From: a virus
Taxonomy: Duplodnaviria; Caudoviricetes
DNA: 54,046 bases
Reading direction: 5' to 3' (one strand)
Virus record (IMG/VR): IMGVR_UViG_3300048597_000384
Location: 1-54,046 of that record
The stretch's first letter is position 1, and each line of letters begins with the position of its first letter. Position numbers and translations under genes: made by a program. Of this stretch, positions 37,319 to 54,046 are shown one piece after another. The notes beneath the pieces are model-generated. The model was not told the origin of the DNA and ran no database searches. It saw nothing but the letters and a program-made list of their open reading frames with translations.

Positions 37319-40300
37319 TGCTGACCCCCGCCATCGCGGCGATCGTCGGCACCGCCGGCGCTCCGGCCGTGCGGCCGACGCCGAGCCTGGTCTGTGTCGG
37401 CAACTCGGTGCGGATGAGTGCGACCGACCTCGCCTCGATCAGCTTCAACCCGGTGATCGACGACGTCACCAACGATGGCGCCGAGGTCGAGCTGGTGGGG
37501 CTGGATCCGCTCCCGTCCACCCAGGGCACGGTGGGGCGGGTCGGCAACGTGGTGACCTATACCAGGGCACCCGGCTATGCCGGCACGTTCGAGCTCGCCT
37601 ACCACGCGCGCTCGGCCACGGGTGCCGAGGCCAGCGGCCTGATCAGCTTCGTGATCGACGGGGTCACGACGCCGGGCTTCGTGACCGGCGTGGCCGATAC
37701 GCTCGACCTCGAGGTGGGCTCGGCCAGCCGGGACTTCGACGTGCTGGCCAACGACAGCGGCTCGGGGCCGATCGAGATCGCGCCCGGCAGCCTGGTGCAG
37801 CCGGCCGGCGGGCCGACGCTTGCCATCGTCGGCGGTCTGCTGCGGGTGACCCGCAACTCCGCGGCCCTGGGCAGCTACACCGGCGGGTCCTACCGGCCGC
37901 GCCTGACCGACGGCTCGCGCCTGGGCGACCCGGTGCCGGTGACCATCCGGGTGGTCTCGGCGACGGTGACCGCCCCGAACTTCACCGTGGTGGTGCCGAT
38001 CACCGCGGCCTCGCCCTTCGTGATCGACGCCCTGGCGCGCTGCAGCGGCTCCGGGCCCCTGGAGCTCCACCCGACCGGGCTGACCGCACCCACCGGCTCG
38101 GCCGACAGTGCCGCCATCTCCGGCGGCAAGATCAATTATACCCGCAGCACGACCCCGGCCGGCGTCTACACGATGGGCTACAAGGCCCGGCTGGTCGCCA
38201 CCCCGGCGGTCGAGGCCACGGGCACCATCACGATCAGGGTGATCGACAACTGGTGGCACGGCCGGCCGCGGCGCGGCGACCGGATGTGGCCCACCGGTTA
38301 CCACGAGATGGGCAGCTCGGCGGCGACCTGGGTCGCCAACAACGGCAACCTCGACGCCTATAGCGGGCGCATCGCCCGGCCGGGCACGTCGGACGCGACC
38401 TGGGAGGGCATCTGGGGCGGGACCGACACCGAGGCCCTGAGCGCGGTGACGGTGCAGGCGAACTCGCAGCTGGACTGGAGCACCGGCGACTTCGGCGCCC
38501 ACGCCCGGGCCATGCCCGTCGACGGGGGGTTCCTCCTGGCCGAATGCGAGCTGTTCCCGGCCAGCTTCCAGCCCGCCAGTGCGACGGACGTGCGGATCTG
38601 GGACCTGATCGACGGCGGCACGCTCGACGCCGGCTACCAGCGGATGGGTGCGCGGCTGCGCAGCAACCTCGCAGCGCTGGGATGGTGGGACCTCGATCTG
38701 TTCGTCCTGGTGCCGTTCCCGGGCATGAACGCCCAGACCGGGATCTGCCGGGTCTACAGCGGCAGCCGGGCCAGGTTCCGCGCGTCGATGGAGCGGGTCT
38801 ACGCCAAGCTGCGCGAGGGCTTCGGCTCCCGGCTGCGCATCGCCCACGTGGTGGCGCGCAAGAACCGGCTGGGGGCCTCGATCCAGGACTGGACCCCGAA
38901 GAACGCCGCCGGCGGCGTGGACGCGGTCGGCCTGGTCTTCAACCCGAGTGCCCTGGTCACCAACGAGGCGACCTTCGCCACCTATCTCGATGCCTGGGAC
39001 GCCGCCAGCTACGGCATGGACGGCGACGCGGTGCCGGCGGCCGCCAGCCTCGGCGTGCCGCTGATCGTGCCCAAATGGGGGCCGCTGGCCCGCGTCACCG
39101 CCGGCGAGAACCCGTGCCCGGCCGGCGACGTCGTGGTGCAGCAGTTCAGCAAGTTCCTGCGCGCGCGCGCCAAGGCGAAGCTCCTGGTGTGCGATTGCAT
39201 GAGCGGCGCGGACCTGCTGAGCACGACGGCCTACGCCGCCACCGATGCAGCCGGGATCGCGGCCTGGAGCCGGATGGTGGCCGACATCCGCGCCATCTGG
39301 AAGGGTGCCCCGCTGAGCCCGATCCCGCGGCTCACGGCGGGCACCACGACCTTGACCATGGGCTCGTCGGCCACCTCGGTCGACGCCAACCCGCTCGCCG
39401 ATGCGACCGGCTCGGAGACACTGGCGATCCGCCGTGTCGTCGCGGTGCCCACGGGCATGACGGCCTCGGTGGTGGGCTCCGGCACGGCGGCCAGGGTGCG
39501 GATCAACAAGGGTACCGCCAGCTCCGGTCTCAAGCAGATCGTGCCGGAGCTGGCGCTGGGCTCGATCCCGTTCTTCGCCGACGGCGACATCCAGCTGACC
39601 GTGGCCGGGACCGCCTCGACCAGGGCCACGCCCGACAACCCGTTCACCTATCTCTCCGCGCACCACCGGCCGCTGGGGGCTGGCGTGCAGCTTGGGATCC
39701 CGCCGTCGGTGCTCGCCACGGCGATCGGGGCCGCGGATGCGGACGGCGACTACACCGGCGCCACCAACACCCGAGGCCGCATCGCTCAGGTCGGACGGCT
39801 GATGCGCGCCGGCGAAGAAAAGCCGATCCACGTCGTCACGGCTTCCATGACGACCCGGACCGTCAACAAGACCCCCGGCACCGACCCCGCGACGGGGCAC
39901 GATCTGCCGATCAACATCAAGATGCCGGACACCCCCTATGTGCCCTACCCGGGCGTGGGGCACGGCGACTCCGAGGTCAATTTCTGGCCGCGCAACGGGG
40001 ACGCGGACGACGATCTCCTGGACATGTTCTTCCAGTTCCGCTTCGCGAGCTTCACCGACATCAAGGCGTCCAAGGTCCAGACCTGCCGGCTGAGCGGCAT
40101 GGACACGCCGACCGACGGCATGGACGGCGGGCCGAGTGCCTCGCGGATCCGCCTGCCGAGCCATGTCCTCCTGGGCAGCGAGATCAACGGCAGCAACCCG
40201 GGGATCTTCCACCCGCTCAACATCGTCTGCACCCGGCACTCCCATAAGGAGAGGACGTACGCCGACAGCGCGCCGGTGAACTGCCACATCATGAACGATC

Positions 40301-40818
40301 GGGCGGTGTGGCCGGCCTACGGGAAGGACAAATTCAACCCACCCTACGATGCCGGCACGTATCGCGACAACCAGGGCGACATCCCCTACGGCACGCGGCT
40401 GACCTTCACCGACGACGATCTGGATGATCTCCTGGCGCTGCCGGGGCTGACCGCCGCCCAGATCGCCATGATCTGGTGCTGGTACTGCTACGGCGGCATG
40501 GTCGCCGACGGGCACGGCGACCGGGTGGCCAACCCGACGCCGGGCGACGGCCGCGGCCCGTGGCTCTCGGTGCTGCGCGTCCGCGAGGACGGCACGGTGA
40601 GCACCTCGGTCGGCAACAAGCTCACCGACATCTACGAGCATATCTTCCCGCGCCTCTGGCCGGTGAAGAACCCGCGCAAGCACTTCGCCGAGAGCGAGAT
40701 CTTCAACATCCCGGGCAACCCCGGGCACGGCTACCCCTATCTGGGCGGCGGCGGGCCCCGCCATGCCACCAGGTCGATCAACACCGCCTTCGACCGGCCC
40801 ACGGCCGCGGGGATCTGA
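37318..40818 (+). CDS. Large multidomain virion-associated protein: Ig-like repeats, GH26-like barrel, uncharacterised C-terminal domain
   Basis: DVLANDSG and VTYTRAPGYAGTF Ig-like motifs; WDLIDGGTLDAGYQRMGARL; C-terminal domain paralogous to 42312-43673 and 43726-44955. Confidence 0.75.
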   Translation: MLTPAIAAIVGTAGAPAVRPTPSLVCVGNSVRMSATDLASISFNPVIDDVTNDGAEVELVGLDPLPSTQGTVGRVGNVVTYTRAPGYAGTFELAYHARSATGAEASGLISFVIDGVTTPGFVTGVADTLDLEVGSASRDFDVLANDSGSGPIEIAPGSLVQPAGGPTLAIVGGLLRVTRNSAALGSYTGGSYRPRLTDGSRLGDPVPVTIRVVSATVTAPNFTVVVPITAASPFVIDALARCSGSGPLELHPTGLTAPTGSADSAAISGGKINYTRSTTPAGVYTMGYKARLVATPAVEATGTITIRVIDNWWHGRPRRGDRMWPTGYHEMGSSAATWVANNGNLDAYSGRIARPGTSDATWEGIWGGTDTEALSAVTVQANSQLDWSTGDFGAHARAMPVDGGFLLAECELFPASFQPASATDVRIWDLIDGGTLDAGYQRMGARLRSNLAALGWWDLDLFVLVPFPGMNAQTGICRVYSGSRARFRASMERVYAKLREGFGSRLRIAHVVARKNRLGASIQDWTPKNAAGGVDAVGLVFNPSALVTNEATFATYLDAWDAASYGMDGDAVPAAASLGVPLIVPKWGPLARVTAGENPCPAGDVVVQQFSKFLRARAKAKLLVCDCMSGADLLSTTAYAATDAAGIAAWSRMVADIRAIWKGAPLSPIPRLTAGTTTLTMGSSATSVDANPLADATGSETLAIRRVVAVPTGMTASVVGSGTAARVRINKGTASSGLKQIVPELALGSIPFFADGDIQLTVAGTASTRATPDNPFTYLSAHHRPLGAGVQLGIPPSVLATAIGAADADGDYTGATNTRGRIAQVGRLMRAGEEKPIHVVTASMTTRTVNKTPGTDPATGHDLPINIKMPDTPYVPYPGVGHGDSEVNFWPRNGDADDDLLDMFFQFRFASFTDIKASKVQTCRLSGMDTPTDGMDGGPSASRIRLPSHVLLGSEINGSNPGIFHPLNIVCTRHSHKERTYADSAPVNCHIMNDRAVWPAYGKDKFNPPYDAGTYRDNQGDIPYGTRLTFTDDDLDDLLALPGLTAAQIAMIWCWYCYGGMVADGHGDRVANPTPGDGRGPWLSVLRVREDGTVSTSVGNKLTDIYEHIFPRLWPVKNPRKHFAESEIFNIPGNPGHGYPYLGGGGPRHATRSINTAFDRPTAAGI

Positions 40819-40821
40819 GCC

Positions 40822-41853
40822 ATGCCGACTTTCCCAGCCACCGGCGCCTTCGCGGCCAGGTCGGGGAGCAACGCCAGTCGCGGCCCCGAGTTCGAGAAGT
40901 GGCTGGGGGCCACCAAGAACCTGGTTGGCGGCGAGGGCTCCTCGGTGGTGAGTATCCTCGGCGGTGCGATCACGCCCTTGACCTGGCGCGTGGCGGTCGA
41001 CGTGGAAGGCGGTGCGGCGGCCTCGGACGATCTGGACCGGGTCAATGCCGGCAGCGAGTACCACAGCGGTGCCGTGATCGTGCTCTCGGCCGCGGCCGAC
41101 ACCCGCACGATCAACGTGCGCAACCTCACCGGCAACATCGTGCTGAAGTCGAGCAGCTTCCAGCTGAAGGGTGCCTGGGCCCGGCTGTGGCTGGAGCTGC
41201 AGGGCACCAACTGGGTCGAGCTCGCCCGCGACTACGGGCAGGACCGGGCGCAGGAGCGGGCCTTCCTGGGCGTGGACGGTGCGGCGCCGGTCGCGGGCCA
41301 GCCGGCGACCTACAGCCATGCCACCGGTGCCGAGGCCCTCGCCGGCGCCAGCCAGACCGCCGTGATGACGCCCCTGACGAACACGGTGGCGATGCAGTCC
41401 GCGGCGCTGATGATCATGCAGCACGCGGATGCCACTGGCCTCACCGCGGCGGACGAGTTCCTGCTCGCCCGCGGCGGCGTGCTCTACCGGATCAACATCG
41501 TCGAGCTGCTGGCCCCGAGCTTCGCCAACTTCGCCACAACCGGCGAGATCGCCATCACCTCGGCCAACAACGGCTTCGCCGCCCACGGCATGGGCGCGCA
41601 GCCGACCCTCTTGCGGGCCTACTACCGCTGCAAGACGGCCGAGCATGGCTATGCGGTCGGGATGGAGGTCCCGGTCGAGTGCACCAGTCCCGAGGAGACC
41701 TATCGCCGGGTCACCTTCGGGGCAGACGGCACGAACTACTATTTCCAGATGTCCGCCACCACCAACGGGGTGCGCGGCATCCACCGCACCAGCGGTGCCG
41801 CGGTGAACTTCACCAACGCCAACTGGCGCCTGTTCATCCGGATGTGGCGCTGA
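40822..41853 (+). CDS. Second tail fiber-like protein
   Basis: N-terminus resembles that of 35333-37318 (D.L..I...I.L......I.VR...G..VL...WL). Confidence 0.65.
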   Translation: MPTFPATGAFAARSGSNASRGPEFEKWLGATKNLVGGEGSSVVSILGGAITPLTWRVAVDVEGGAAASDDLDRVNAGSEYHSGAVIVLSAAADTRTINVRNLTGNIVLKSSSFQLKGAWARLWLELQGTNWVELARDYGQDRAQERAFLGVDGAAPVAGQPATYSHATGAEALAGASQTAVMTPLTNTVAMQSAALMIMQHADATGLTAADEFLLARGGVLYRINIVELLAPSFANFATTGEIAITSANNGFAAHGMGAQPTLLRAYYRCKTAEHGYAVGMEVPVECTSPEETYRRVTFGADGTNYYFQMSATTNGVRGIHRTSGAAVNFTNANWRLFIRMWR

Positions 41854-41929
41854 GCGCACCCGCCTGGCGCCGGCGGCGCCGGCGTGCCGATCGCGATCCA
41901 AGCCCGACATCGAACCAGAGAGGTTGGCC

Positions 41930-42274
41930 GTGACCACGAAGTCGCTTCGCACCTGCACGGTGGCGAACGGGCAGAGCCTGTCGCCCTACGCCGATTTCCA
42001 GGGCTACTGGCCGGCGGCGTTTCGGGTGCGCGGGCCCGCGCAGGGCACCCACCTGGTGTTCAAGCGCCGGGACTTCGAGATGGAGGGCTACTGGCGGGAC
42101 GCCGGGGCCGCCAAGCAGAGCTGTGCGTTCGTGGTCGACGACTGGTGCGGGCTCGAGCCCGGCCTGCTGCCCTCCTGGGACGATCTGGCCGTCCAGATCT
42201 GCAGCGACGCAAGTGGAACGCCGCAGAACCAGAACCAGGCGGTGGCCATCGACTTCATCGTGATTGCCGACTGA
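41930..42274 (+). CDS. Hypothetical protein
   Basis: GAGG SD, beta-rich, about 114 aa. Confidence 0.65.
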   Translation: MTTKSLRTCTVANGQSLSPYADFQGYWPAAFRVRGPAQGTHLVFKRRDFEMEGYWRDAGAAKQSCAFVVDDWCGLEPGLLPSWDDLAVQICSDASGTPQNQNQAVAIDFIVIAD

Positions 42275-42311
42275 GCGTGCCGATGCCCGCGACGGTGGAC
42301 TGGAGCCAGCA

Positions 42312-43673
42312 ATGACCAGATGGTACGCGTTTGCCGACTTCGCGGAGCGCAATGCCTGCGCCGAGGCCAGGGAGCCCGGCGTGTGCATCTACGTCAACGA
42401 CGACGGCCAGGGGAAGGCCGTGCGCCAGTATTGGGACGGGAGCTGGAAGCGGCTGGCCGGCCCGATCCTGAGCGCGCCGCCGCCGCCCGCCCTCGAGGAG
42501 CCGCCCGCGGAGATCCTGCCGCCCCCGCCTCGGCCGCCCCTTCCTCGGCCGCCGGTCACGGCGGCCGACATCTTCCTGCAGCCGTTCGACGCCGACTCGC
42601 CCTGCAACACACCCTTGGGCAAGGTCCGCTACGGCATCCCGCCCAGCACGCTCGACCCGATGGTGCCGCACCCGGTCTACATGCCCGGCCGGGAGGGCAG
42701 CCGGGGGCGGCTGGTGCTGGTCAAGACCTTCCGCTGCGGTGTCACCAGGCAGGGCAGGAAGTACGCCCACCGGGTCCGGCTGACCGATCCCATGCGCCAG
42801 ATCGAATGGCACGGGCGGGAGCACGGCGGCGGCACGGGCGGCGGGCTGCCCGTGACCCTGCGGATGCCGGTGCCGGGGCCGGGCTGTCCCTATTCGGACG
42901 ATCCGAGCGGCGACAACGAGGTGCTGCTCTATCCCCGCAATGGCGAGGGCGAACTCGCCGACGTGCTCGCGCAGTGCAATTACGACAGCCGCAGGGGCAC
43001 GCCGGGCGTGGCCTCGGCCAGGACGCGCCGGAGCTACTCGCTCAAGGGCCCCGCCGCCCGCAACCGCTTCGACGATCCGGGCGACTGGGGGCCGGGGGCG
43101 ATCGATTTGCGGCACCCGGCGGGCTTCCTGCGCGGCGCCATGGTCGACCTGTCCGGCGGGACTCCGATCCGGCACCTGCTCAACGCCACCGCCACCCGCC
43201 ACTCGCGTGCCGGCGCCAGGCCCTCGCAGCACGTGCTGGGCAGGGGCATGGCCTACCCGGCATGGAACACCGACCGGCCGCTGCGGGCTGAGGACAATCT
43301 GGGCGACATCCCCTACGGGACGATCATCGCCCTGCGCTGGCAGGATCGCGGCCTGCGCGAGACGCTGGGCCTGACCCCCTTCGGCAAGGTGCTGTTCGAC
43401 ACCTTCCTCTACTTCGGCTGCTGCCTGTGCGACGGCCAGGGGCAGGTGGTGGACGATGCGCCGGTCCTGCAGCTCCGGGTGGACTGGGAGCTCACCGCCG
43501 AGAAGGAGGCCGCGGTCGAGGCGGCCCTGGCGAAGCTCCTGCCGCATCTGTGGCCGGTGTTCGATGCCCGCCGCCATGACGAGGACGCGCCGCGCCACAG
43601 CGACGGGCTGATCTATGTCGGCGGCGGCGGCCCGCTCGGGCCGGGCAGCATCAACTCCGCTTGGGACGCGTGA
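42312..43673 (+). CDS. Uncharacterised protein, paralog copy 2 (poly-Pro linker)
   Basis: TRH, DNLGDIPYGT, DGQG, LWP, GGGGPLGPGSINSAWDA. Confidence 0.8.
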   Translation: MTRWYAFADFAERNACAEAREPGVCIYVNDDGQGKAVRQYWDGSWKRLAGPILSAPPPPALEEPPAEILPPPPRPPLPRPPVTAADIFLQPFDADSPCNTPLGKVRYGIPPSTLDPMVPHPVYMPGREGSRGRLVLVKTFRCGVTRQGRKYAHRVRLTDPMRQIEWHGREHGGGTGGGLPVTLRMPVPGPGCPYSDDPSGDNEVLLYPRNGEGELADVLAQCNYDSRRGTPGVASARTRRSYSLKGPAARNRFDDPGDWGPGAIDLRHPAGFLRGAMVDLSGGTPIRHLLNATATRHSRAGARPSQHVLGRGMAYPAWNTDRPLRAEDNLGDIPYGTIIALRWQDRGLRETLGLTPFGKVLFDTFLYFGCCLCDGQGQVVDDAPVLQLRVDWELTAEKEAAVEAALAKLLPHLWPVFDARRHDEDAPRHSDGLIYVGGGGPLGPGSINSAWDA

Positions 43674-43725
43674 TGGTCCCCGGGATCCCGGCGGTCGCCG
43701 GCGCAGGCCGTGTGAGGAGCTGCCG

Positions 43726-44955
43726 ATGCCGTCGCTGATGCAGTGGATGGTGCTCCGGGGCAATCGAGCGGGGCAGGGCGGCGGTGCCCCCGCCCAGGCT
43801 GTGCCGCCCGAGCTGCTGACCCTGCTGCCCAACGGCGGCGCCTACAACCGCCGCGCCCAGCCGCGCTCCTATGCCCTGCCCGACGGTACGGAGGTCGTGA
43901 TCGGCGACCTGGCCGCCGTCGCGCGCCAGCAGGATCTGCTGCTCAATCCATTCGGCGCGCGCAGCGCGCACCACCGGCCGATCGGGCGGGGTGCGGTGAA
44001 GGGCATCCCGGGCACCACCGGTCCGGCCACGCGCGGGCGGCTCGACGTGGTGGGCCGGATCCGCATCCCGAACGCGGCCGACCTGGGCAAGTGGTATTAC
44101 CGGGCGCTCGACGGCGACGACCCGCGCAGCATCACTTCCAGCGGCAGCGGCATCGGCCTGCCCTCGAACGAGAAGATGCCGGCCGGGGTGTTCTACCCGG
44201 ATTCGAGCGACGGCGACTGCATCGTCATCCGTCCGGCGCCGAGCGTGACGGCCGACGCCTGGTATCAGTTCCGAGACGCCGCCAGCACGGCCTCGATCCG
44301 CCGGACCTACACGGTCGACGGCGACGACCTCCCCTGGACGGACGGCCAGGACCGGGGCAACAGCGCCTCGAAGCTGCGCTTCCCGGCGGCCTGCCTGTTC
44401 GCGGACCAGCTCAACCTGGCGAACCCGCCGCCGCAGCGTTACGCGCTGCACCTGACCGCGACGCGGCACGACGGCCAGGGTGCCAACAGCTCGATCCACG
44501 TGCTCGGCAAGACCTGGGTCGCCCCCGCGCTGGGCACGGACGGCGACGCCGGTGACGAGGATCGAAACCTCGGCAACATTCCTTACGGGACCAGGATCTG
44601 GTTGCCTTGGGACGCGCCGTGGCAGGACCTGCGGGAACTGTCCGGCTTCAACCAGCGCCAGAAGGTCTACTTCGACATCTGGCGCCTCTACGGCGCCTAC
44701 ATCCTGGACGGGCAGGGGCAGCACGAGGAAGGCAAGGCAATCCTGCAGCTTCGGCAGACCGGCGGGCTCACGACGGAGGTCATCGCCGAGCTCGAAGCCG
44801 TGCACGCGGTGATCCTCCCTTACCTATGGCCGATGCGGAACGCCCCGGCCTCCTTCACCGACGCCAGCGAGACCTGGGCCGACGGCCTGCCCTACGCCGG
44901 TGGCGACGGCCCGCTCGGCCCGGAATCCATCAACTCCGCCTGGGATGCCCGCTGA
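43726..44955 (+). CDS. Uncharacterised protein, paralog copy 3
   Basis: NPFGARSAHHRPIG, TRH, NLGNIPYGT, DGQG, GGDGPLGPESINSAWDA. Confidence 0.8.
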   Translation: MPSLMQWMVLRGNRAGQGGGAPAQAVPPELLTLLPNGGAYNRRAQPRSYALPDGTEVVIGDLAAVARQQDLLLNPFGARSAHHRPIGRGAVKGIPGTTGPATRGRLDVVGRIRIPNAADLGKWYYRALDGDDPRSITSSGSGIGLPSNEKMPAGVFYPDSSDGDCIVIRPAPSVTADAWYQFRDAASTASIRRTYTVDGDDLPWTDGQDRGNSASKLRFPAACLFADQLNLANPPPQRYALHLTATRHDGQGANSSIHVLGKTWVAPALGTDGDAGDEDRNLGNIPYGTRIWLPWDAPWQDLRELSGFNQRQKVYFDIWRLYGAYILDGQGQHEEGKAILQLRQTGGLTTEVIAELEAVHAVILPYLWPMRNAPASFTDASETWADGLPYAGGDGPLGPESINSAWDAR

Positions 44956-46289
44956 TGGCGATCTACTTCGTCGATCCCGCCGCCGCCGGCGCGAACAACG
45001 GGACCTCCTGGGCCAACGCCTGGACCGGCATGGCGACGGCGCGCGCCGCCTACACGACCCCGACGCCGGGCGACGAGTTCAAGGTCGCCTACACGCTCAA
45101 CGAGACGCTGGCGGCGGCCATGGCTTTCGCGCCCAACGGCTCGGGATCGAACCGCGGCATCCGCTTCACGTCGACCGATCCGGCGAATGATGCCTACCGC
45201 GCCGGTGCCAAGCTCGTCACCGCCGGCTACACCCTGGACCTGTTCGGCCTGGTCGAAGGCTTCACGCTCGACGGCTCGACGTCCGCGGCGCACCTGAACG
45301 TGCGGCCGGGCAACGGTGCCGAGTTCTTCGATTGCACCTTCGTCAAGCAGCCCGGCTACTCTTTTCAGATCGCCGGGACCAGCAATCAGCGGGGCGCGGT
45401 GCGCCAGTGCCTGTTCGACCAGGGCGCCGGCTACACGGCGCCGTGCTTCACGACGAACACCGGGTTCGTCGACCTCGAGCTGTTCAACTGCGTCATGGGC
45501 GGCACGATCGGCGCCACGGCTTCGCTGGTGGCGCAGACCACCAGCTCGGCGTCCGGCCGGTTCCGCTTCGTCAACTGCGACCTGCACGGCTTCACGTCGA
45601 TCCTGGACCAGGCCGCCGGCAGTGCCAACGGCACCCTCGACGTACGGATCGAAGGCGGCCTGGAGCCGGCGAGCTTCGAGGCCGAGGCGGGCAATGGCGA
45701 CCTGCTGCTGCGCAAGGGCTCGCGGCTGGTCATGATCGGCTCGGGCAACGGCACGCTGGCCGCACCGGTGACCAAGCGCACCTATTGGGAGCACTTCGGC
45801 AAGGCCGGGATCCAGTCCACGGTCTACCGCAGCGGCGGCGGCCATGACGGCACCACGCCGCAGGCCTGGGCGGTCTCGGCATGGGCCAACCGCACCTGGC
45901 CGCGCTCGCGGCACGGTATCATCGTGCCGGTCGTCTCGGGCGGCTGGGCGGCCAAGGACCGGGTGACCACGGCGCGCATCTTCTTCGCGCACAGCGGTGC
46001 GGCGCTTACCAATGACGATCTCAGCTTCCGGCCCTACACGCCGAGTAACGCCACGCCGCCGACGGCGCTGCTGTTCACGGCCAACGCCGGCGGCCTGCGC
46101 GGTGCCGCCGCTGCCGCCTACCCGACCGACGCGGCCTCGACCTGGGGCGGCGGGCCCACGGTCAAGCAGTACGCGGACGTCGAATTCACGCCCACGATCT
46201 CCGGCCCGGTGGCGGGCGAGGTGATGTTCCACCCGGGCGGGGCGTCGGATCGCACCATCTACCTCGACGCGCAGATCGTCCTGATCTGA
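44955..46289 (+). CDS. Putative beta-helix tailspike / depolymerase-like protein
   Basis: YFVDPAAAGANNGTSWANAW N-terminus; repeated F.DC.F / L.NC / F.NC rungs. Confidence 0.65.
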   Translation: MAIYFVDPAAAGANNGTSWANAWTGMATARAAYTTPTPGDEFKVAYTLNETLAAAMAFAPNGSGSNRGIRFTSTDPANDAYRAGAKLVTAGYTLDLFGLVEGFTLDGSTSAAHLNVRPGNGAEFFDCTFVKQPGYSFQIAGTSNQRGAVRQCLFDQGAGYTAPCFTTNTGFVDLELFNCVMGGTIGATASLVAQTTSSASGRFRFVNCDLHGFTSILDQAAGSANGTLDVRIEGGLEPASFEAEAGNGDLLLRKGSRLVMIGSGNGTLAAPVTKRTYWEHFGKAGIQSTVYRSGGGHDGTTPQAWAVSAWANRTWPRSRHGIIVPVVSGGWAAKDRVTTARIFFAHSGAALTNDDLSFRPYTPSNATPPTALLFTANAGGLRGAAAAAYPTDAASTWGGGPTVKQYADVEFTPTISGPVAGEVMFHPGGASDRTIYLDAQIVLI

Positions 46290-48384: not shown

Positions 48385-48427
48385 CGGTTTTCAAGACCGC
48401 TGCCATCGACCACTCGGCCACCCATCC
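48385..48427 (-). repeat. att site (right junction): orphaned 5' half of tRNA-Ser
   Basis: GGATGGGTGGCCGAGTGGTCGATGGCAGCGGTCTTGAAAACCG; identity stops within the 3' strand of the anticodon stem. Confidence 0.93.
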
Positions 48428-48441
48428 GTCCCGGCCGACCT

Positions 48442-48469
48442 GAGATAGCATGGCTGCATCTCTCCGCAA
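48442..48469 (-). promoter_or_regulatory. Putative original host tRNA promoter
   Basis: TTGCGG - 16 nt - TATCTC with TGn extended -10, 14 nt upstream of the tRNA fragment. Confidence 0.55.
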
Positions 48470-48698
48470 GCCGGGCAGGTCGGCGCTGATGCCGGACGGA
48501 CCTGTCCGCCTTGCGGAGCCGGAGCATCAGACAGCGGAACTCTACGTCGATGGTGGTAGCCTTAAGCAAGTGGTGCGATGCTCGGGATCGCGCCGTCGAC
48601 TGTGCGGACCCGCCTGAGCGCGATCTGCCGCAAGCCCAGGGTGACGGCCCGGATCGGGCTGCGCCCAGCGCGCCGTCCTTACCTCGACTCCCTCCCGC

Positions 48699-50258
48699 TC
48701 AGGGCTGGAAGCCTGTCTGGGCGCGCCACTGGCCTGTATGGCGCCAGTCCCATCGTGGCAGGGCGGGGGGGCTCGGTCCGAGGCGGACTGGCTGCGCCAG
48801 GATACTGCCGCTGACGGCGTCCAGGCCGTCGTCGCGGCCGCGGCCGCCTGGCAGCCATTCGCGCATCTCGCGGATGAACGGCGTTTCCCAGACCGAGGCG
48901 TGGGCGCGCAGGGCACGGGCGGCAAGGATCGGGTCGAACGCGTTCAGGATGCGCGTGTCCTTGGCCGTGACGCTCACCTGCTCGCTGACCGTGATCGCGA
49001 GGTGCCGGGCCGCGAGTTCGCGGCGCAGCAGTGTCGGCAGGTAGCGGCCCAGGCCGTTGGTCTCGATCGCGATCGCCGGCTGGTGCTGCGCGCGCAGGAA
49101 GGCGATCACCTGCCGGCACAGCTGGGCGGCCTCGTCCTCGACGGCAAGACCGCTCTCGTCGACGCGCAGGTACTGGATGCCGTGGAGCCAGTAGCCCCCG
49201 CTGTCGTCGGTGAACACGGCGGCGACCACGCTGGCGTCGCCCCGGGTCGGCCGGGCCATCGCTGGATCCCACCAGCACGTAGCCCCGACCATCCGCCGCC
49301 CCTCGATAGTGAGGATCGGCTCGCCATTGACCTCGCGCAGGTCGAGCCGGCCCTCGTAGCGCACCAGCCGGTCCGGATCGAGGCGGACGTCCTGGGTGTG
49401 GCCGGGCGTCAGCATCATCTGGCTGCGGAAGCGGTTGGGGCCGGTGTCGCGCTGGATGTCGGCCACCGCCTCGCCGCCGAAGCGGTCCGGCCAGACACCG
49501 TCCAGCGCCTTGTCGACCAGCGGAATGTTCATCCTGGTGTAGCTGGCGAGGAAGGGCACCGCCTCGTCGAGCTCGGGCCGGGGCTCGTCGGCGTAGATCG
49601 AGTAGTAGCTGTGCGGCGTGCCGATGTAGAGCTGGGTGCCGTCGGGCACCAGGACGAACGAGGCCTCGCGCAGGCGTTCGCGCAGCTCCATGCGCTTGTG
49701 GTGGGTGCCGGCGGTGTTGGGCACCTCGACATCGTCGCAGATGATGATGTCGGCGCGGCAGCCGGTGATGTTCGCACCGATGCCACGGGCCATGAGCGAG
49801 GGGTCGCGATGCGCGGCCTCGCGCGCGACGGTGAACTGTGCCGCCGCCCACTCCTCACGCCGCCTGGGCAGAAGATGTCGGGTCAGCTTGTTGCGCTCCA
49901 GCACCCGGCGGACATTGCGGGTCATGCGCGTGGCGAGGCCGGCCTCGGCCGACAGGACGAGCAGGCGCAGGTTCGGGTCCTGGCCCAGGAGCCAGGCACA
50001 GAACAGGCCGACCAGCGTGGACTTGCCCGCGTCGCGGAACACCATCAGCAGGAGCCGTCGGTCGCCGGCGGCCCAGCGCTCGTCGAGCCAGCGCGACATG
50101 CGCAAGTGCACGTCGGGGGTCTCGCGGCCCTGCTGCAGGTTCCAGGCGGTGACGAAGCTGGAAAAGGGCAGCCCGGCCAGAGGCCCGCGACAGGGTCGGG
50201 CCGGTGCTGCGGACGATGCCCGCGCGCCGGCCTCAAGACTGCCTTCGTCAGCGTTCAA
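48699..50258 (-). CDS. terL: Terminase large subunit, T7 gp19-like
   Basis: VFRDAGKST Walker A, ITGCRADIIICDDVE, WDPA, IETNG, RDDGLDA. Confidence 0.9.
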   Translation of the reverse strand: MNADEGSLEAGARASSAAPARPCRGPLAGLPFSSFVTAWNLQQGRETPDVHLRMSRWLDERWAAGDRRLLLMVFRDAGKSTLVGLFCAWLLGQDPNLRLLVLSAEAGLATRMTRNVRRVLERNKLTRHLLPRRREEWAAAQFTVAREAAHRDPSLMARGIGANITGCRADIIICDDVEVPNTAGTHHKRMELRERLREASFVLVPDGTQLYIGTPHSYYSIYADEPRPELDEAVPFLASYTRMNIPLVDKALDGVWPDRFGGEAVADIQRDTGPNRFRSQMMLTPGHTQDVRLDPDRLVRYEGRLDLREVNGEPILTIEGRRMVGATCWWDPAMARPTRGDASVVAAVFTDDSGGYWLHGIQYLRVDESGLAVEDEAAQLCRQVIAFLRAQHQPAIAIETNGLGRYLPTLLRRELAARHLAITVSEQVSVTAKDTRILNAFDPILAARALRAHASVWETPFIREMREWLPGGRGRDDGLDAVSGSILAQPVRLGPSPPALPRWDWRHTGQWRAQTGFQP

Positions 50259-50692
50259 TCGAGCAGGCTCCGCCCCGACCGCGACGAGCCTGCGAACCGG
50301 CTGCCGAGCCTCACGGAGCGGCCGGCGAAGTCGAGCAGGCTGCGCTGACTGCGGTTGTCGAAGGTGTTGCGGATGTCCTCGATCTCGAGGTTCGATTCTT
50401 GCCGGCGCGCCTGCTCGCGCAGGCGGCTCTCCTGCACCAGCCCGGCCAGGATCGCGTCGGCCGAGCCGCCGCTGGAGCCCACGCCGGCCCCGCCCGCGCG
50501 GGCGCGCTCCTCCGCCAGGCGGCGGCGCAATGCCTGCTCCTGCTGCCGCCCCTCCTCGGCGTCACCGATCCTGATCGCCTGGATCTGGCGGTCGCGCTCG
50601 CGGCGCAGATCCTTGGCCTCGTTGGCCTGCGCGCGCTGGTTCAGGGCCAGATTGAGGCCCAACGTGGCCAGGCTGTTCAACGCACCCATCAC
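50255..50692 (-). CDS. Helical virion protein (internal-virion-protein-like)
   Basis: Coiled coil with RARAGGAGVGSSGGSADAIL motif, after tail tubular B. Confidence 0.6.
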   Translation of the reverse strand: MMGALNSLATLGLNLALNQRAQANEAKDLRRERDRQIQAIRIGDAEEGRQQEQALRRRLAEERARAGGAGVGSSGGSADAILAGLVQESRLREQARRQESNLEIEDIRNTFDNRSQRSLLDFAGRSVRLGSRFAGSSRSGRSLLD

Positions 50693-52611
50693 ATGTTCCC
50701 CATGATCTCGGAGGTGACCGAAAGGATGGTGCAGGCGGCCGGGTCGTCCTGGCGGACGCGCCAGGGCGGCTCGGCACTGCCGCGGCGCCAGCCGGAGGCC
50801 CGCAGCTCGGCCTCGCCGGAGTACCGCCTGGCGGCATCGCCTGCACCCAGCGGCAGGGCGTGGAGGCCGCTGCCGGCATCGGCCCGCAGGGCGCCGGTCT
50901 CGTGCAGGCGGAAGACGATCCGGACCGGCCGGTAGGGTCGATCCAGGCTCACGCCCGAACCGCCCGGGACCGCGAGGCTCATCGGCTCGACCTCGTGCGC
51001 GAAGGGCGCGCCGATGGTGACGGACGTGGCGGTGGCGAGAGCGGTCACGGCACCGGCTGCCACCACGGCGCGATGCGCCGGGCCCGGACCCTCCAGAATG
51101 ACCTCGCGCCCTTCCAGATGCTGCAGCCCGCCCCAGGCGATCGTCGGCGTGGGACTGGCGAGCGTCACCGTATGGTCGGTCGTCAGCGCTTCCTCGAAGC
51201 GCTCCAGCAGGATCTGCCCGCCGAGGTCGACCAGGAAATGCGGCTGGCCGTCGTGGATGGCGACCGACCGGAACAGACCGGTGCTCTCGAGCAGGCTCCA
51301 GGCCACGACGTTGCTGTTGCGGTCGAGCGCCACCGTCGCGAGCGTGCCGTCCGCCCGCACGAGCAGGAGCCAGCGCCGCCGCCGGTCGAAGCGCAGGGCC
51401 GTGGGCTCTACCATGAGGTGGCGCGACAGCAGCGCGATGTCAGCCGCCTGGTAGGCCTGTTCGCTCTCGGCGTAGAGGAACTCGCGCAGCTCGCGGCCCG
51501 AGGCGCCCACGAACAGGGCGGCACCGTCGACCTCCACCGGGTCGAGCCGCCGCGTCGCCCAGGAGCCTATCCGGGTCTGCAGCTCGACCGACACGCTTTC
51601 CGCGGTGATCGGCGCGCCGCGCACCACCCACTCGCCGCTGGTGGTGAACACCTGCAGGAGCCTGCCCGGCAGGAGGCCGCGGATCGCGTGCTGCTCGTCG
51701 CCGGCAAGGCGGAAGCTGATCGCCTCGTCGGGAAGTCCTTCGCCGGGGTCGAAGTTGAACGGGTGGCCGGTCCTGGAGAACCACAGGCGGTCCGGTACGT
51801 CGCGCGAGCCGCCGATCACCAGCCGCTCCTGGTGGACCGCGACGCAGGCGGGCCAGCCGCGCGCTTCGCTGAACGCCTGCTCCTGCCAGTCGCGGGTGGG
51901 CTTGCCGTCCTTCAGCTTCTGCAGGGCCACGCCGAACGCGCGCTGCCGGTCGACCGGGTCGGGATTGACGATCCGGATGTGCTTGCCCTTGACCGTGATC
52001 ACCGAGTCGATGTGGTCGGGCGTGAACACGGGCTCGCTGGTCAGCAGCGAGACGAAGCTGCCGGCGGCGATCTCGCCGGCAGCACCGTCGTTCACCTGGA
52101 TCGCGATCTCCGGCCGGACGAAGCGGGCGAACGGGAACAGGCTGCGGGCCTCGCCGTCCTCGTCCAAGGACTGCTCGTACTGCCAGTCCCGCAGCAGCCA
52201 GCCGGACACGCCGTCGCGGATAAGCTCCTTGGGCGGTACCGCCGGATGGCATAGCAGGAGGCGGTCGCCCCAGCGCGCGATGCTCAGGTCCGGCAACTCG
52301 GCCGGTCCCCAGAGGGTGTCGGTGACGGCGTGGACCACGACTCCGCCGCGCAGGATGTCGAGCCGGTAGGAACCAAAGGCCAGGAGCTCGCCGCCCCCCG
52401 AGCCCTCGAAGGTGGCGAGGCGCAGCGCCCCGGGTAGCGACGCGACCAAGCGCAGGCCGGGCCGGCGGCTCACGCCTCCGGAGGGATGAACGACTACGTT
52501 GCGAAGCCTGGCCGCGCCGTCCTCCTGGGCCTTGAGGTCGAGCCGGCCGCGCAGCAGCGGATCGAGCTCGCCCGATGTGAAGCTGGTCTTGGTGACGAAG
52601 GCGCGGGTCAT
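50689..52611 (-). CDS. Tail tubular protein B / nozzle-like
   Basis: TSFTSGELDP..GR.D, RNV..P.GGV.RRPG, GWP..V..HQERL, FTTSGEW. Confidence 0.85.
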   Translation of the reverse strand: MTRAFVTKTSFTSGELDPLLRGRLDLKAQEDGAARLRNVVVHPSGGVSRRPGLRLVASLPGALRLATFEGSGGGELLAFGSYRLDILRGGVVVHAVTDTLWGPAELPDLSIARWGDRLLLCHPAVPPKELIRDGVSGWLLRDWQYEQSLDEDGEARSLFPFARFVRPEIAIQVNDGAAGEIAAGSFVSLLTSEPVFTPDHIDSVITVKGKHIRIVNPDPVDRQRAFGVALQKLKDGKPTRDWQEQAFSEARGWPACVAVHQERLVIGGSRDVPDRLWFSRTGHPFNFDPGEGLPDEAISFRLAGDEQHAIRGLLPGRLLQVFTTSGEWVVRGAPITAESVSVELQTRIGSWATRRLDPVEVDGAALFVGASGRELREFLYAESEQAYQAADIALLSRHLMVEPTALRFDRRRRWLLLVRADGTLATVALDRNSNVVAWSLLESTGLFRSVAIHDGQPHFLVDLGGQILLERFEEALTTDHTVTLASPTPTIAWGGLQHLEGREVILEGPGPAHRAVVAAGAVTALATATSVTIGAPFAHEVEPMSLAVPGGSGVSLDRPYRPVRIVFRLHETGALRADAGSGLHALPLGAGDAARRYSGEAELRASGWRRGSAEPPWRVRQDDPAACTILSVTSEIMGNM

Positions 52612-53180
52612 GCCAGGCGCGCCTCGATGAGCGTGAAATCGTCAAAGGCGCGCGGCGTGGTCTGCTGGCTGTCGATCAGCCGGGCGCCGCGCAGCTCGGC
52701 TTCGGCCAGGCGGTAGAGGTCCATGGCCCGGCTCGAGCCCTCGGTTAGTGGGATGCAGAACTCCGCGGCGAGGCGGGTAACCAGCAGCGGCACGAAGAAG
52801 GGTGGCAGATCGGCCTCGGGCACGCGCCGCTGGTAGTTCAGCACGATCTCCTGGGCGTCGCAGAGGATCTGGCCGGCCTGCACCCGGTAGGCGGTGCCGC
52901 GGCTGCGGCCGCCCGTGCCCACCGAGATGGTGCGCAAATGGTCCTCGGGCAGCGCGAAGGCGTGGACGAAGTCGGCCACCGGTGCGGCCGCATCGGGCGC
53001 CAGCGTCACCTGGGCCAGCGTGAACGACCAGGGATGCACGCCCAAGAGCAGGTCACGCGCGATCGGGTAGAGCCGGCGGGCGCAGGCGGCCTCCGCCGTG
53101 TCCTCCTCGAACGCGGCGAAGGGGCGAGCGCCGATCTTCACCAGGGCCGCGGCGCAGAGCTCGACGGCGGACATCGGCAT
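52608..53180 (-). CDS. Tail tubular protein A / adaptor-like
   Basis: VELCAAALVKIGA..HPWSF..FALPED.LR..RLAAE. Confidence 0.85.
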   Translation of the reverse strand: MPMSAVELCAAALVKIGARPFAAFEEDTAEAACARRLYPIARDLLLGVHPWSFTLAQVTLAPDAAAPVADFVHAFALPEDHLRTISVGTGGRSRGTAYRVQAGQILCDAQEIVLNYQRRVPEADLPPFFVPLLVTRLAAEFCIPLTEGSSRAMDLYRLAEAELRGARLIDSQQTTPRAFDDFTLIEARLA

Positions 53181-53213
53181 GATCGTACTCCGGGCAGGCA
53201 GCTGGGTTCGGGA

Positions 53214-53576
53214 TCAGGCGACCTGGCCGACATGCTGGCGCAGCGTGCGCCAGAGGTCGGCCGGGCGCGTCGGCAGGAGGGCCAGGAGGCAGCCGGCCTG
53301 GCCGAAGGCGATCAGGATCGGCCGGCCGGGCTGGACGAACAGCGCGACGCCGTCGGGGGTGGAGGGCAGGGCCTCACCGCCGCGCTCGCCCCACAGCGAG
53401 AGGAACGGGATGAGCTCGCCCGCGGCATAGTCGAAGCGATGGGTCTCCGGCAGGCGCGCCGCGAGTTGGGCGACGCTCAGGCCCGGACAGCCGATCGCGG
53501 GGGTGGCGGTGAGGCTGGTGGCGAGGAACAGGCCGCGCACCAGGGCGCGGCGCCAGATGCGCATCCGGACCGGCAT
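53214..53576 (-). CDS. Hypothetical exported protein
   Basis: GGAG SD, signal-peptide-like N-terminus, two Cys. Confidence 0.6.
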   Translation of the reverse strand: MPVRMRIWRRALVRGLFLATSLTATPAIGCPGLSVAQLAARLPETHRFDYAAGELIPFLSLWGERGGEALPSTPDGVALFVQPGRPILIAFGQAGCLLALLPTRPADLWRTLRQHVGQVA

Positions 53577-53598
53577 CGCTATCGCTCCAGGAGAAGGT

Positions 53599-53629
53599 GC
53601 CGCCGCCGGGCGACAGGCCCGGCGGCGGC
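53599..53629 (-). terminator. 13-bp stem hairpin after the capsid-proximal gene
   Basis: GCCGCCGCCGGGC-GACAG-GCCCGGCGGCGGC followed on the minus strand by ACCTTCT. Confidence 0.6.
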
Positions 53630-53635
53630 GAGAGG

Positions 53636-53905
53636 TCAGTCGTTGTTGACCGCGCCGTAGGTGGTCACGTTGGTCACATCGACCACGCCGCCTGCATTGG
53701 CGACCACGACCGCCACGCCGTGGGTCGGCGTGCTGTCGATACCGGCATTGAGCAGCACGAAGTCCCCGACCCGGACCATCCGGCTCGCCGGGTTGAAGTA
53801 CCCGGCATTGTCGACCTGGGCAGCGAGGTCGGTGGTCCGGTAGTGCCAGAGGGTAAAGCCGTTGGCGTAGCCCAGGGCACTCAGGTTCTTGGGATCGTAC
53901 GCCAT
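53636..53905 (-). CDS. Small capsid-associated protein (possible decoration protein)
   Basis: MAYDPKNLSALGYANGFTLWHYRT...GYFN; GGAGG SD inside the end of the capsid gene. Confidence 0.75.
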   Translation of the reverse strand: MAYDPKNLSALGYANGFTLWHYRTTDLAAQVDNAGYFNPASRMVRVGDFVLLNAGIDSTPTHGVAVVVANAGGVVDVTNVTTYGAVNND

Positions 53906-53907
53906 GA

Positions 53908-54045
53908 TCAGGCCTCCAGGCAGGGCAGCTTGACGACGCCGGCGGGGTCGATCAGCCCGGCGCCCTGGGACATCGAGTTGGCGACGAAGTGTGCCGCGCG
54001 GTCGCCGTGCCAGGTCACGTCGCTGGTGATCTCCTGGCCGATCGC
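53908..54045 (-). CDS. C-terminus of a podovirus-type major capsid protein (partial)
   Basis: AIGQEITSDVTWHGDRAAHFVANSMSQGAGLIDPAGVVKLPCLEA*; position ahead of tail tubular A/B. Confidence 0.7.
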   Translation of the reverse strand, partial: AIGQEITSDVTWHGDRAAHFVANSMSQGAGLIDPAGVVKLPCLEA

Positions 54046-54046
54046 G

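Follow-up and report, generated by a model that had tools for sequence, protein, structure and literature searches.

The virus record IMGVR_UViG_3300048597_000384 is a single contig of 54,046 bases with 71% G+C, analysed here over its whole length (the window), and most of it is taken up by a lambda-like siphovirus prophage (728-48384). Beyond this prophage, on the minus strand at 48699-54046, stands a second set of virion genes of T7-like podovirus type, and the question raised by the locus is whether this cluster belongs to another prophage, to a satellite, to a viral remnant or to a particle system kept by the host. The cluster probably represents the distal half of a domesticated, fixed and vertically inherited podovirus-derived particle system rather than a prophage, and is a candidate for a viriform or gene transfer agent (GTA). 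That it represents a domesticated, inherited, podovirus-derived particle gene set was considered well supported and likely; that its particles carry out true gene transfer was given a little less than an even chance. The nearest relatives point to a member of Geminicoccaceae as the host, and across this family the cluster is single-copy, unbroken and under purifying selection.

Gene content of the cluster and of the complete unit

An earlier note on this DNA had described a co-oriented, intact gene set running from capsid to large terminase on the minus strand, and all of the genes named there were recovered at or near the same positions. Read from the record end, the first encodes the major capsid protein (272 aa), of which the C-terminal 46 codons are contained in the window before the record cuts the gene (53908-54046); these are 97% identical to the capsid C-terminus of the relative L002, and the full-length L002 capsid matched PF19821 (expectation value (E) 4e-74) and the capsid protein of Legionella phage LME-1 (9eg4_A, E 2e-23). 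It is followed by p89 (53636-53905), an 89-aa protein matched to phrog_18004, whose AF2 model (predicted local distance difference test score, pLDDT, 91.8) matched LME-1 capsid chain H (9eg4_H, E 8e-5, template-modelling (TM) score 0.73) and whose alignment of 27 sequences contained 16 invariant columns. Since chain H is the head decoration chain in the LME-1 report (PMC12407071), p89 was assigned as the head decoration protein. The adaptor (tail tubular A, 190 aa; 52608-53180) and the nozzle (tail tubular B, 640 aa; 50689-52611) matched phrog_394 (E 5e-41) and phrog_376 (E 1.5e-95), respectively, and the solved relatives of the nozzle were 8ck1_A (E 1e-37) and LME-1 orf18 (9efk_M, E 3e-20). 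The last gene of the cluster is terL (48699-50258), encoding a 519-aa large terminase of T7 type (phrog_38, E 1e-71), with T7 gp19 (4bij, E 3e-20) as best solved relative and with Walker A-like GKST and Walker B-like IICDD motifs, read by eye, in its translation.

Between the adaptor and p89 lies p120 (120 aa; 53214-53576), which carries a signal-peptide or lipobox-like N-terminus, as read from the sequence with no predictor, and gave no family match in profile searches. The p120 family was called in 13 of the 76 related loci described below, none of them outside the compact-form set, and p120 is a lineage-specific exported insert with the weakest constraint of the set. Neighbouring cluster genes have start and stop codons that overlap or lie no more than 60 nt apart; a pattern scan across the cluster found no promoter-like sites and one terminator-like site, not above shuffled sequences (mean 1.2). 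The gene set of the window reads as the end of one operon.

The claim that no large ejection or fibre genes lie between tail tubular B and terL was borne out, the interval being occupied by a single 145-aa gene, p145 (50255-50692), compared with approximately 8.4 kb between the same two genes in Yersinia phage YeP4. The p145 product is a coiled-coil protein, conserved from Geminicoccaceae as far as Elioraea. Its Elioraea homologue gave a weak match to phrog_418, 'internal virion protein' (E 0.003), and language-model feature matches of 0.94-0.95 were obtained, one of them to a cluster with PF24072 (T7_gp14) in 11% of members. Because it sits directly after the nozzle and shows the weak internal-virion match and the gp14 hint, p145 is best read as gp14-like, and a candidate role as T7 gp14-type internal virion or ejection protein is taken as a lead. 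Small terminase was considered for p145 and was the poorer reading on the same grounds. The 'small helical protein' of the earlier note is better described as gp14-like than as a packaging subunit or a blank.

The complete unit could be read in L002, L003 and L009, where it spans approximately 10 kb and 12 genes before host genes begin. It starts with a divergent 212-aa CI/LexA-like regulator gene, followed by F24 (approximately 150 aa), portal (PF12236, E 7e-127), F11 (approximately 85 aa), scaffold (PF05396, E 9e-17), capsid and then the genes of the window, and the T7-like module of portal, scaffold, adaptor, nozzle and gp19-type terminase is complete and in order. For F24, Foldseek returned nothing at E 0.001; the model (pLDDT 81) was aligned by VIA-align to TseH (Z 8.0) and YiiX (Z 6.1), invariant His, Cys and Cys columns were seen, and the model thus offers a papain or NlpC/P60-like cysteine hydrolase as a lead. 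Gene maps were made with a caller trained on the codon usage of the window, which is incomplete at loci of lower G+C, and were backed by blastx and tblastn maps.

The earlier note had made much depend on what lies upstream. In the relatives, portal, scaffold and divergent CI-like regulator are followed by host genes, and the cluster maps contain no polymerase, primase, integrase, replication or lysis genes and no attachment-site (att) repeat; no RNA polymerase gene was found in or beside the mapped clusters, on gene maps only and with no dedicated search. In a flank scan, 249 open reading frames (ORFs) of 150-700 aa within 6 kb of the cluster were collected and the first 150 compared with Pfam. 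ABC transporters, aminotransferases and permeases were the commonest families, with transport and metabolism on top, and integrase was not among the 25 commonest. The full cluster is bounded by host genes in both L011 and L002.

These maps bear on the possibility that a second intact temperate podovirus lies in tandem at the tRNA-Ser gene, with its right end only in view. The record does end inside the capsid gene, and terL is the last gene of T7-like genomes and would be expected beside a tRNA att site. In L011 and at least 40 other loci, however, the cluster ends approximately 5 kb past the point at which the record stops, at the regulator and then host genes, giving a unit of only approximately 10 kb in which no polymerase, primase, integrase or second att site was seen. 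A tandem podovirus is already refuted for the relatives and was considered extremely improbable for the window. Further relatives in IMG/VR (n = 34) were confined to short contigs (4-18 kb, with a single exception of 37 kb) and show that virus-finding pipelines file such loci as proviruses.

Distribution, inheritance and selection

With the nozzle protein as query, 76 loci were recovered from species genomes, in agreement with the similar clusters mentioned in the earlier note for Rhodospirillales-type chromosomes. Identity was 43-97% within Geminicoccaceae and approximately 40% in Elioraea, Caenispirillum, Rhodospira, Roseospira, Paramagnetospirillum and Thalassospiraceae; in public entries the cluster proteins are named 'phage capsid protein' or 'hypothetical protein'. 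The patchy distribution that the earlier note had named as evidence to the contrary was not seen: a capsid match was obtained in 94 of 107 species genomes of Geminicoccaceae (the family of Benzoatithermus), mostly single and unbroken, with 90 near full length and free of stops, four present as fragments only and 13 genomes without a match. One capsid-positive genome of the family (G091) is unpublished. Five named genomes contained exactly one capsid copy each. Among 401 evenly drawn Alphaproteobacteria the capsid was found in 80 (E 1e-20 or better), in 65 of these at 51% identity or above, and of those 65 one had two stops and one was in two pieces. Homologous clusters are present in approximately a sixth of the Alphaproteobacteria sampled. 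The marker PF09343 of the Rhodobacter capsulatus GTA (RcGTA) was present in 67 of the same 401 genomes, with both markers in two only (Fisher p 3e-5, kinship ignored). According to PMC5721377, large clusters of RcGTA type are absent from the portion of the class in which the present cluster occurs.

For the tree comparison, concatenated capsid, adaptor, nozzle and terL sequences from 30 genomes were set against RpoB using quick maximum-likelihood trees. Cluster and RpoB distances were correlated (Mantel r 0.58, reached in none of 2000 permutations), and nine of 27 splits were common to the two trees (mean 0.17 and maximum 3 with shuffled labels). To this extent the congruence with the host tree anticipated in the earlier note was found. 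Vertical descent is the main but not the sole pattern, or else the trees are imperfect.

Selection was estimated as the ratio of non-synonymous to synonymous substitution rates (dN/dS) by the Nei-Gojobori method, with the window genes compared with their two closest relatives; under such codon bias the method tends to overstate the ratio. Values were 0.08-0.23 for six of the seven genes (terL 0.13-0.17, p145 0.16-0.23, adaptor 0.08-0.12, p89 0.09-0.12) and 0.3-0.6 for p120, so that the purifying selection looked for was present. These data bear most directly on the view of the cluster as a decaying, functionless remnant of an old podovirus prophage. In favour of decay, a few genomes hold broken or partial copies of the capsid gene (two stops in G494, a split gene in G105, a second, broken copy in G040), and the form found in Geminicoccaceae is without fibre and lysis genes, small terminase (terS) candidate and the catalytic residues of its repressor. 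Against it, at least nine genes are unbroken in most of the 107 species genomes at the low dN/dS given above, and capsid identity of 62-83% across Geminicoccaceae, alongside 82-88% for RpoB, indicates constraint. Remnants do not last in this way over order-level divergence, and this explanation was regarded as improbable.

Domestication is further supported by the chromosomal positions. Flanks are conserved within Elioraea and within one Geminicoccaceae clade. The Elioraea cluster has lysyl-tRNA synthetase (lysK) on one side and dihydroorotate dehydrogenase (pyrD) on the other, and the same lysK-cluster-pyrD context was found in two further genomes, whose RpoB shares no more than 74-76% identity with the Elioraea protein. 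The portal gene is detached from the capsid gene in five genomes, at distances of 11 kb, 73 kb, 153 kb, 1.5 Mb and 1.9 Mb and with both genes intact, and the cluster is interrupted or reordered in L081 and L090. A virus could not survive such splitting, but genes kept by the host could, and in those five genomes the set cannot travel as one piece. As in viriforms, phage-derived structural genes stand in the chromosome without means to excise, replicate or integrate, are inherited with the host lineage (with partial congruence) and are kept by selection. The vertically inherited, podovirus-derived system put forward in the earlier note is supported as to domestication, 'gene transfer agent' being a candidate label.

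Outlying matches were also recorded. Capsid matches of 41-44% identity were found in G185 (two copies), G170, G340 and G472, and these may represent free-living or prophage relatives of the ancestor. The G340 locus (L096) contains adaptor, nozzle and fibre anchor, with no terL within 13 kb downstream of the capsid gene. One cluster, with a nozzle 45% identical to that of the window, was present on a 10-kb contig (L023) of a metagenome-assembled genome labelled Planctomycetaceae, where a binning error is more likely than transfer.

Fuller forms, proposed working and comparison with known systems

Outside Geminicoccaceae (Elioraea, Caenispirillum and others) the cluster has a longer form with extra genes after the gp14-like gene. 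The order there is tailspike, an approximately 100-aa helical protein, terL, a 110-aa protein, a cell-wall hydrolase (PF07486) and a holin. The tailspike combines a T7-type N-terminal anchor with a pectate-lyase-like beta-helix, the helical protein (phrog_31793 only) is translationally coupled to terL and is the terS candidate, and the holin belongs to PF11351, GTA_holin_3TM (E 1.5e-14). Compared by sequence with solved structures, p89, p145 and the terS candidate gave chance-level rows only. The regulator of Elioraea and Caenispirillum is an S24 peptidase (PF00717, E 3e-22) that retains the Ser and Lys residues by which such repressors cleave themselves; in seven of seven aligned Geminicoccaceae sequences both the catalytic Ser (GDSM-type motif) and the Lys were replaced. 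The window itself does not extend to the regulator gene. A profile of the terS candidate found nothing in four Geminicoccaceae genomes (control positive), the holin family was absent from seven (Caenispirillum control positive, Elioraea also negative), and the fibre anchor domain was absent from seven save for one weak match (E 0.002; both controls positive), located on another contig that also holds a distant capsid match.

The long form of Elioraea and Caenispirillum type is ancestral. That of Geminicoccaceae would be the most reduced of the known forms, having apparently lost the repressor cleavage residues, tailspike, terS candidate, endolysin and holin, and one small gene alone is therefore left between nozzle and terL.

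A working for the system can be proposed on this basis. The regulator would release the operon, and portal, scaffold and capsid would assemble a procapsid, by homology to LME-1 probably of T=7 and approximately 60 nm. The decoration protein would coat the shell, terL would pack DNA into it, and the adaptor, the nozzle and the gp14-like protein would seal the filled capsid. As the locus has no means of excision or replication, and the Geminicoccaceae genomes searched yielded no terS candidate, the packaged DNA would be host chromosome. With repressor cleavage, lysis and tailspike lost, trigger, release and attachment would have to rely on genes elsewhere or on other elements. The missing functions might come from other genes of the genome, from the 336-aa tail-protein-like neighbour present in L002 and L011, or from co-resident phages.

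The same reduction could be accommodated if the domesticated particle served a purpose other than transfer, for example defence, with DNA being packaged or degraded upon phage infection, or action as a DNA-filled decoy or killer. The reduced form keeps capsid, terminase and channel parts with no means of attachment or release found, its regulator no longer looks cleavable in the SOS response and would have to answer to a different signal, and the nuclease of the terminase, acting on incoming or host DNA, could abort infection. The cluster shows no partner genes of defence type, however, and the fuller forms, with tailspike, endolysin and GTA-type holin, look made for release and delivery; this use was considered unlikely.

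Several points weigh against the reading of the cluster as a domesticated, inherited GTA-like system. Particle formation, the packaging of host DNA and delivery are predicted functions, a point of difference from RcGTA, and a search of sequencing runs yielded no RNA data set with the locus, the one run taken for RNA being probably DNA. The absence of a recognisable fibre, lysis gene or terS from the four to seven Geminicoccaceae genomes searched makes a transfer particle harder to picture, and a T=7 capsid would, by its estimated capacity, hold more than the length of the cluster, unlike that of RcGTA. The complementarity of the capsid and RcGTA markers may simply follow phylogeny, and the 13 Geminicoccaceae genomes without a capsid match, for which completeness is not given, are not readable as losses. 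In the tree comparison 18 of 27 splits departed from the RpoB tree, some of them supported (G003/G208, G337/G166), and in that part the expected congruence failed; some horizontal movement, or tree error, is likely. In the window's own subclade the left flanks vary between species, tRNA genes can adjoin both ends of the cluster, and in one relative a VapE primase gene adjoins the regulator, all of which could also fit a mobile island.

The last of these points lead to the alternative of a still-mobile, capsid-forming satellite or island, with a helper podovirus providing fibres, lysis and perhaps the initiation of packaging. Capsid-forming phage-inducible chromosomal islands (cf-PICIs) carry integrase, replication and helper-sensing genes of their own and move between strains. 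The cluster resembles them in its small gene set with its own capsid and packaging enzyme and without some tail and lysis functions; head and packaging genes without fibres or lysis are typical of capsid-forming satellites, and helper fibres with a T7-type anchor could fit the adaptor and nozzle. The variable left flanks of close species and the VapE-like primase gene agree with such an element, and a tRNA-Ser gene adjoins the cluster in 15 of 60 scanned loci and a tRNA-Val gene in two. The integrase, replication and helper-sensing genes, all satellite-borne in cf-PICIs, were not found in the cluster, however; integrase stood outside the 25 commonest families of the 150 flank proteins and the surroundings of the cluster showed no att repeat. 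A single capsid gene was found in 90 of the 107 species genomes, housekeeping flanks are common across order-level distances, intact portal and capsid genes up to 1.9 Mb apart are not packageable as one unit, and the VapE gene occurs at one locus only. A mobile satellite was therefore held to have a small chance of being correct, and domestication by the host was retained as the preferred reading.

Among known systems, RcGTA (Rhodogtaviriformidae) is likewise a phage-derived head-tail-terminase cluster fixed in alphaproteobacterial chromosomes, without integrase or replication genes, widespread, mostly vertical in descent, under purifying selection and with parts possibly at other loci, and the holin of the fuller form belongs to the same Pfam family, PF11351. 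The two differ in origin, from a siphovirus in RcGTA and from a T7/LME-1-like podovirus here, where tape measure and tail tube are absent. The portal, capsid and terminase families are not the same, the genes here being of T7-type families and not homologous to the RcGTA head-tail cluster (HK97-type capsid with protease, tape measure, g12-g15), which places the cluster outside Rhodogtaviriformidae; its capsid is probably T=7, compared with the small head of RcGTA, and a CI/LexA-like regulator stands beside the operon. In every respect readable from sequence the cluster appears GTA-like.

The closest solved virion is that of LME-1 (9eg4 and 9efk), to which the capsid, decoration and nozzle matches given above refer. 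According to PMC12407071 it has a T=7 capsid of approximately 60 nm, a T7-like complex of portal, adaptor, nozzle and fibre, and a head decoration gene directly after the capsid gene, the order also found here. LME-1 itself is infectious and temperate, a complete phage that packages a genome of its own and has fibres and internal virion proteins, whereas the cluster, at approximately 10 kb, is immobile and without these. The best phage relatives of terL and nozzle were temperate T7-like podoviruses without RNA polymerase (Yersinia YeP4-6, Alcaligenes Piluca, HTVC019P-type pelagiphages and Bordetella BPP-1), at 26-30% identity over 80-100% of the length; their genomes, of 34-43 kb, also encode an integrase, replication functions, fibres and large ejection proteins (Piluca inspected). 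The chromosomal clusters share 40-84% identity with one another, far above that to phages. From Autographiviridae, the T7 family proper, the cluster is set apart by the lack of a phage RNA polymerase on the gene maps and by not being a complete lytic genome.

To our knowledge, GTAs are known from few independent domestications, none of them from a podovirus. In full-text searches of the available literature neither a GTA of podovirus type nor the present cluster was found described, and earlier mention elsewhere is possible. If particles are made, they would represent a new origin for GTAs and bring exchange of this kind to a large share of the Alphaproteobacteria, believed until now to be without it. 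The clusters, reduced to differing degrees in nature, would also allow the takeover of a virus by its host to be studied, with loss of the attachment organ, of packaging specificity and of self-cleavage by the repressor among its steps. Direct testing is made possible by the cultured carriers Elioraea tepidiphila, Caenispirillum salinarum, Benzoatithermus flavus and Paramagnetospirillum kuznetsovii. More tentatively, and with a wider scheme in mind that is plausible rather than probable, the clusters may constitute an ancient second family of alphaproteobacterial GTAs, of T7/LME-1-like origin, in Rhodospirillales-, Acetobacterales- and Geminicoccales-type lineages without RcGTA. Stages of domestication would coexist in it (SOS-triggered with tailspike and holin, scattered, and the stripped Geminicoccaceae form), and fibres and lysis might be borrowed by the stripped form from phages already in the cell or entering it, the adjacent siphovirus being one example.

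The adjoining siphovirus and neighbouring genes

The siphovirus prophage reported beside the cluster was confirmed, its genes including integrase (1869-2873), repressors, helicase-primase, terS, terL, portal, protease, capsid, tape measure and a J-like tip; no terminal repeat or circular form of the record was found. Six large genes 3' of the J-like gene (35363-46289; 651, 1166, 343, 453, 409 and 444 aa) had no PHROG match. The prophage is flanked by a 43-nt direct repeat (685-727 and 48385-48427, one mismatch). The left copy is part of an intact tRNA-Ser(UGA) gene (640-727), and the right copy, on the minus strand, is the 5' half of a tRNA-Ser(UGA) gene. The right copy is the native, promoter-proximal half left by insertion of the siphovirus and marks the chromosomal neighbour of the cluster. 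The spacer between the native tRNA-Ser start and the terL stop (48428-48698) measured 271 bp, matching the approximately 270 bp given in the earlier note. L011, a 454-kb contig with 96% DNA identity, aligned with window positions 54046-48682 and continued directly into an uninterrupted tRNA-Ser gene; of the spacer, 48428-48471 was aligned. Because this near-identical relative has the cluster beside an unoccupied tRNA-Ser gene, the siphovirus is a later insertion into the tRNA gene adjoining the cluster.

The siphovirus duplicates the 5' half of the tRNA-Ser gene, from the 5' strand of the acceptor to the anticodon loop, where the 3' half is usual. As the 5' half is supplied by the siphovirus, the intact tRNA-Ser gene on the integrase side has a phage-borne 5' half and needs a promoter on the phage side, and the native tRNA-Ser promoter retains the 43-nt stump only.

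In the spacer between regulator and operon (L002:4549-4662, and also in L003, L005, L009, L011, L014, L031, L037, L051 and L047), TAGGAA/TCCTA-type repeats were seen around a TTGAC box; by inspection, with no statistics, they persist from Geminicoccaceae to Elioraea and look like putative operators of the CI-like protein.

Further genes were noted upstream of the regulator. A gene of 336-346 aa (L002:2717-3727, plus strand; L011:2633-3673) matched phrog_17388, 'minor tail protein' (E 1e-22), was present in the L002 and L011 loci only and was 25% identical to a distal siphovirus tail gene (approximately 44700); possible origins are a stray fragment of a prophage or recruitment as a receptor-binding protein, and the gene might be the missing fibre. 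In one Geminicoccaceae clade (L031:895-3258, minus strand; L015, L018, L026, L029, L034 and L035) a 787-aa pectate-lyase-like beta-helix protein is always found upstream of the regulator, resembling tailspike bodies and without a T7-type anchor. The VapE gene mentioned above (L037:857-3409, minus strand), encoding an 850-aa VapE/DUF5906 primase-helicase beside the regulator in Geminicoccaceae bacterium 1502E only, is probably part of another island at a tRNA-rich spot.

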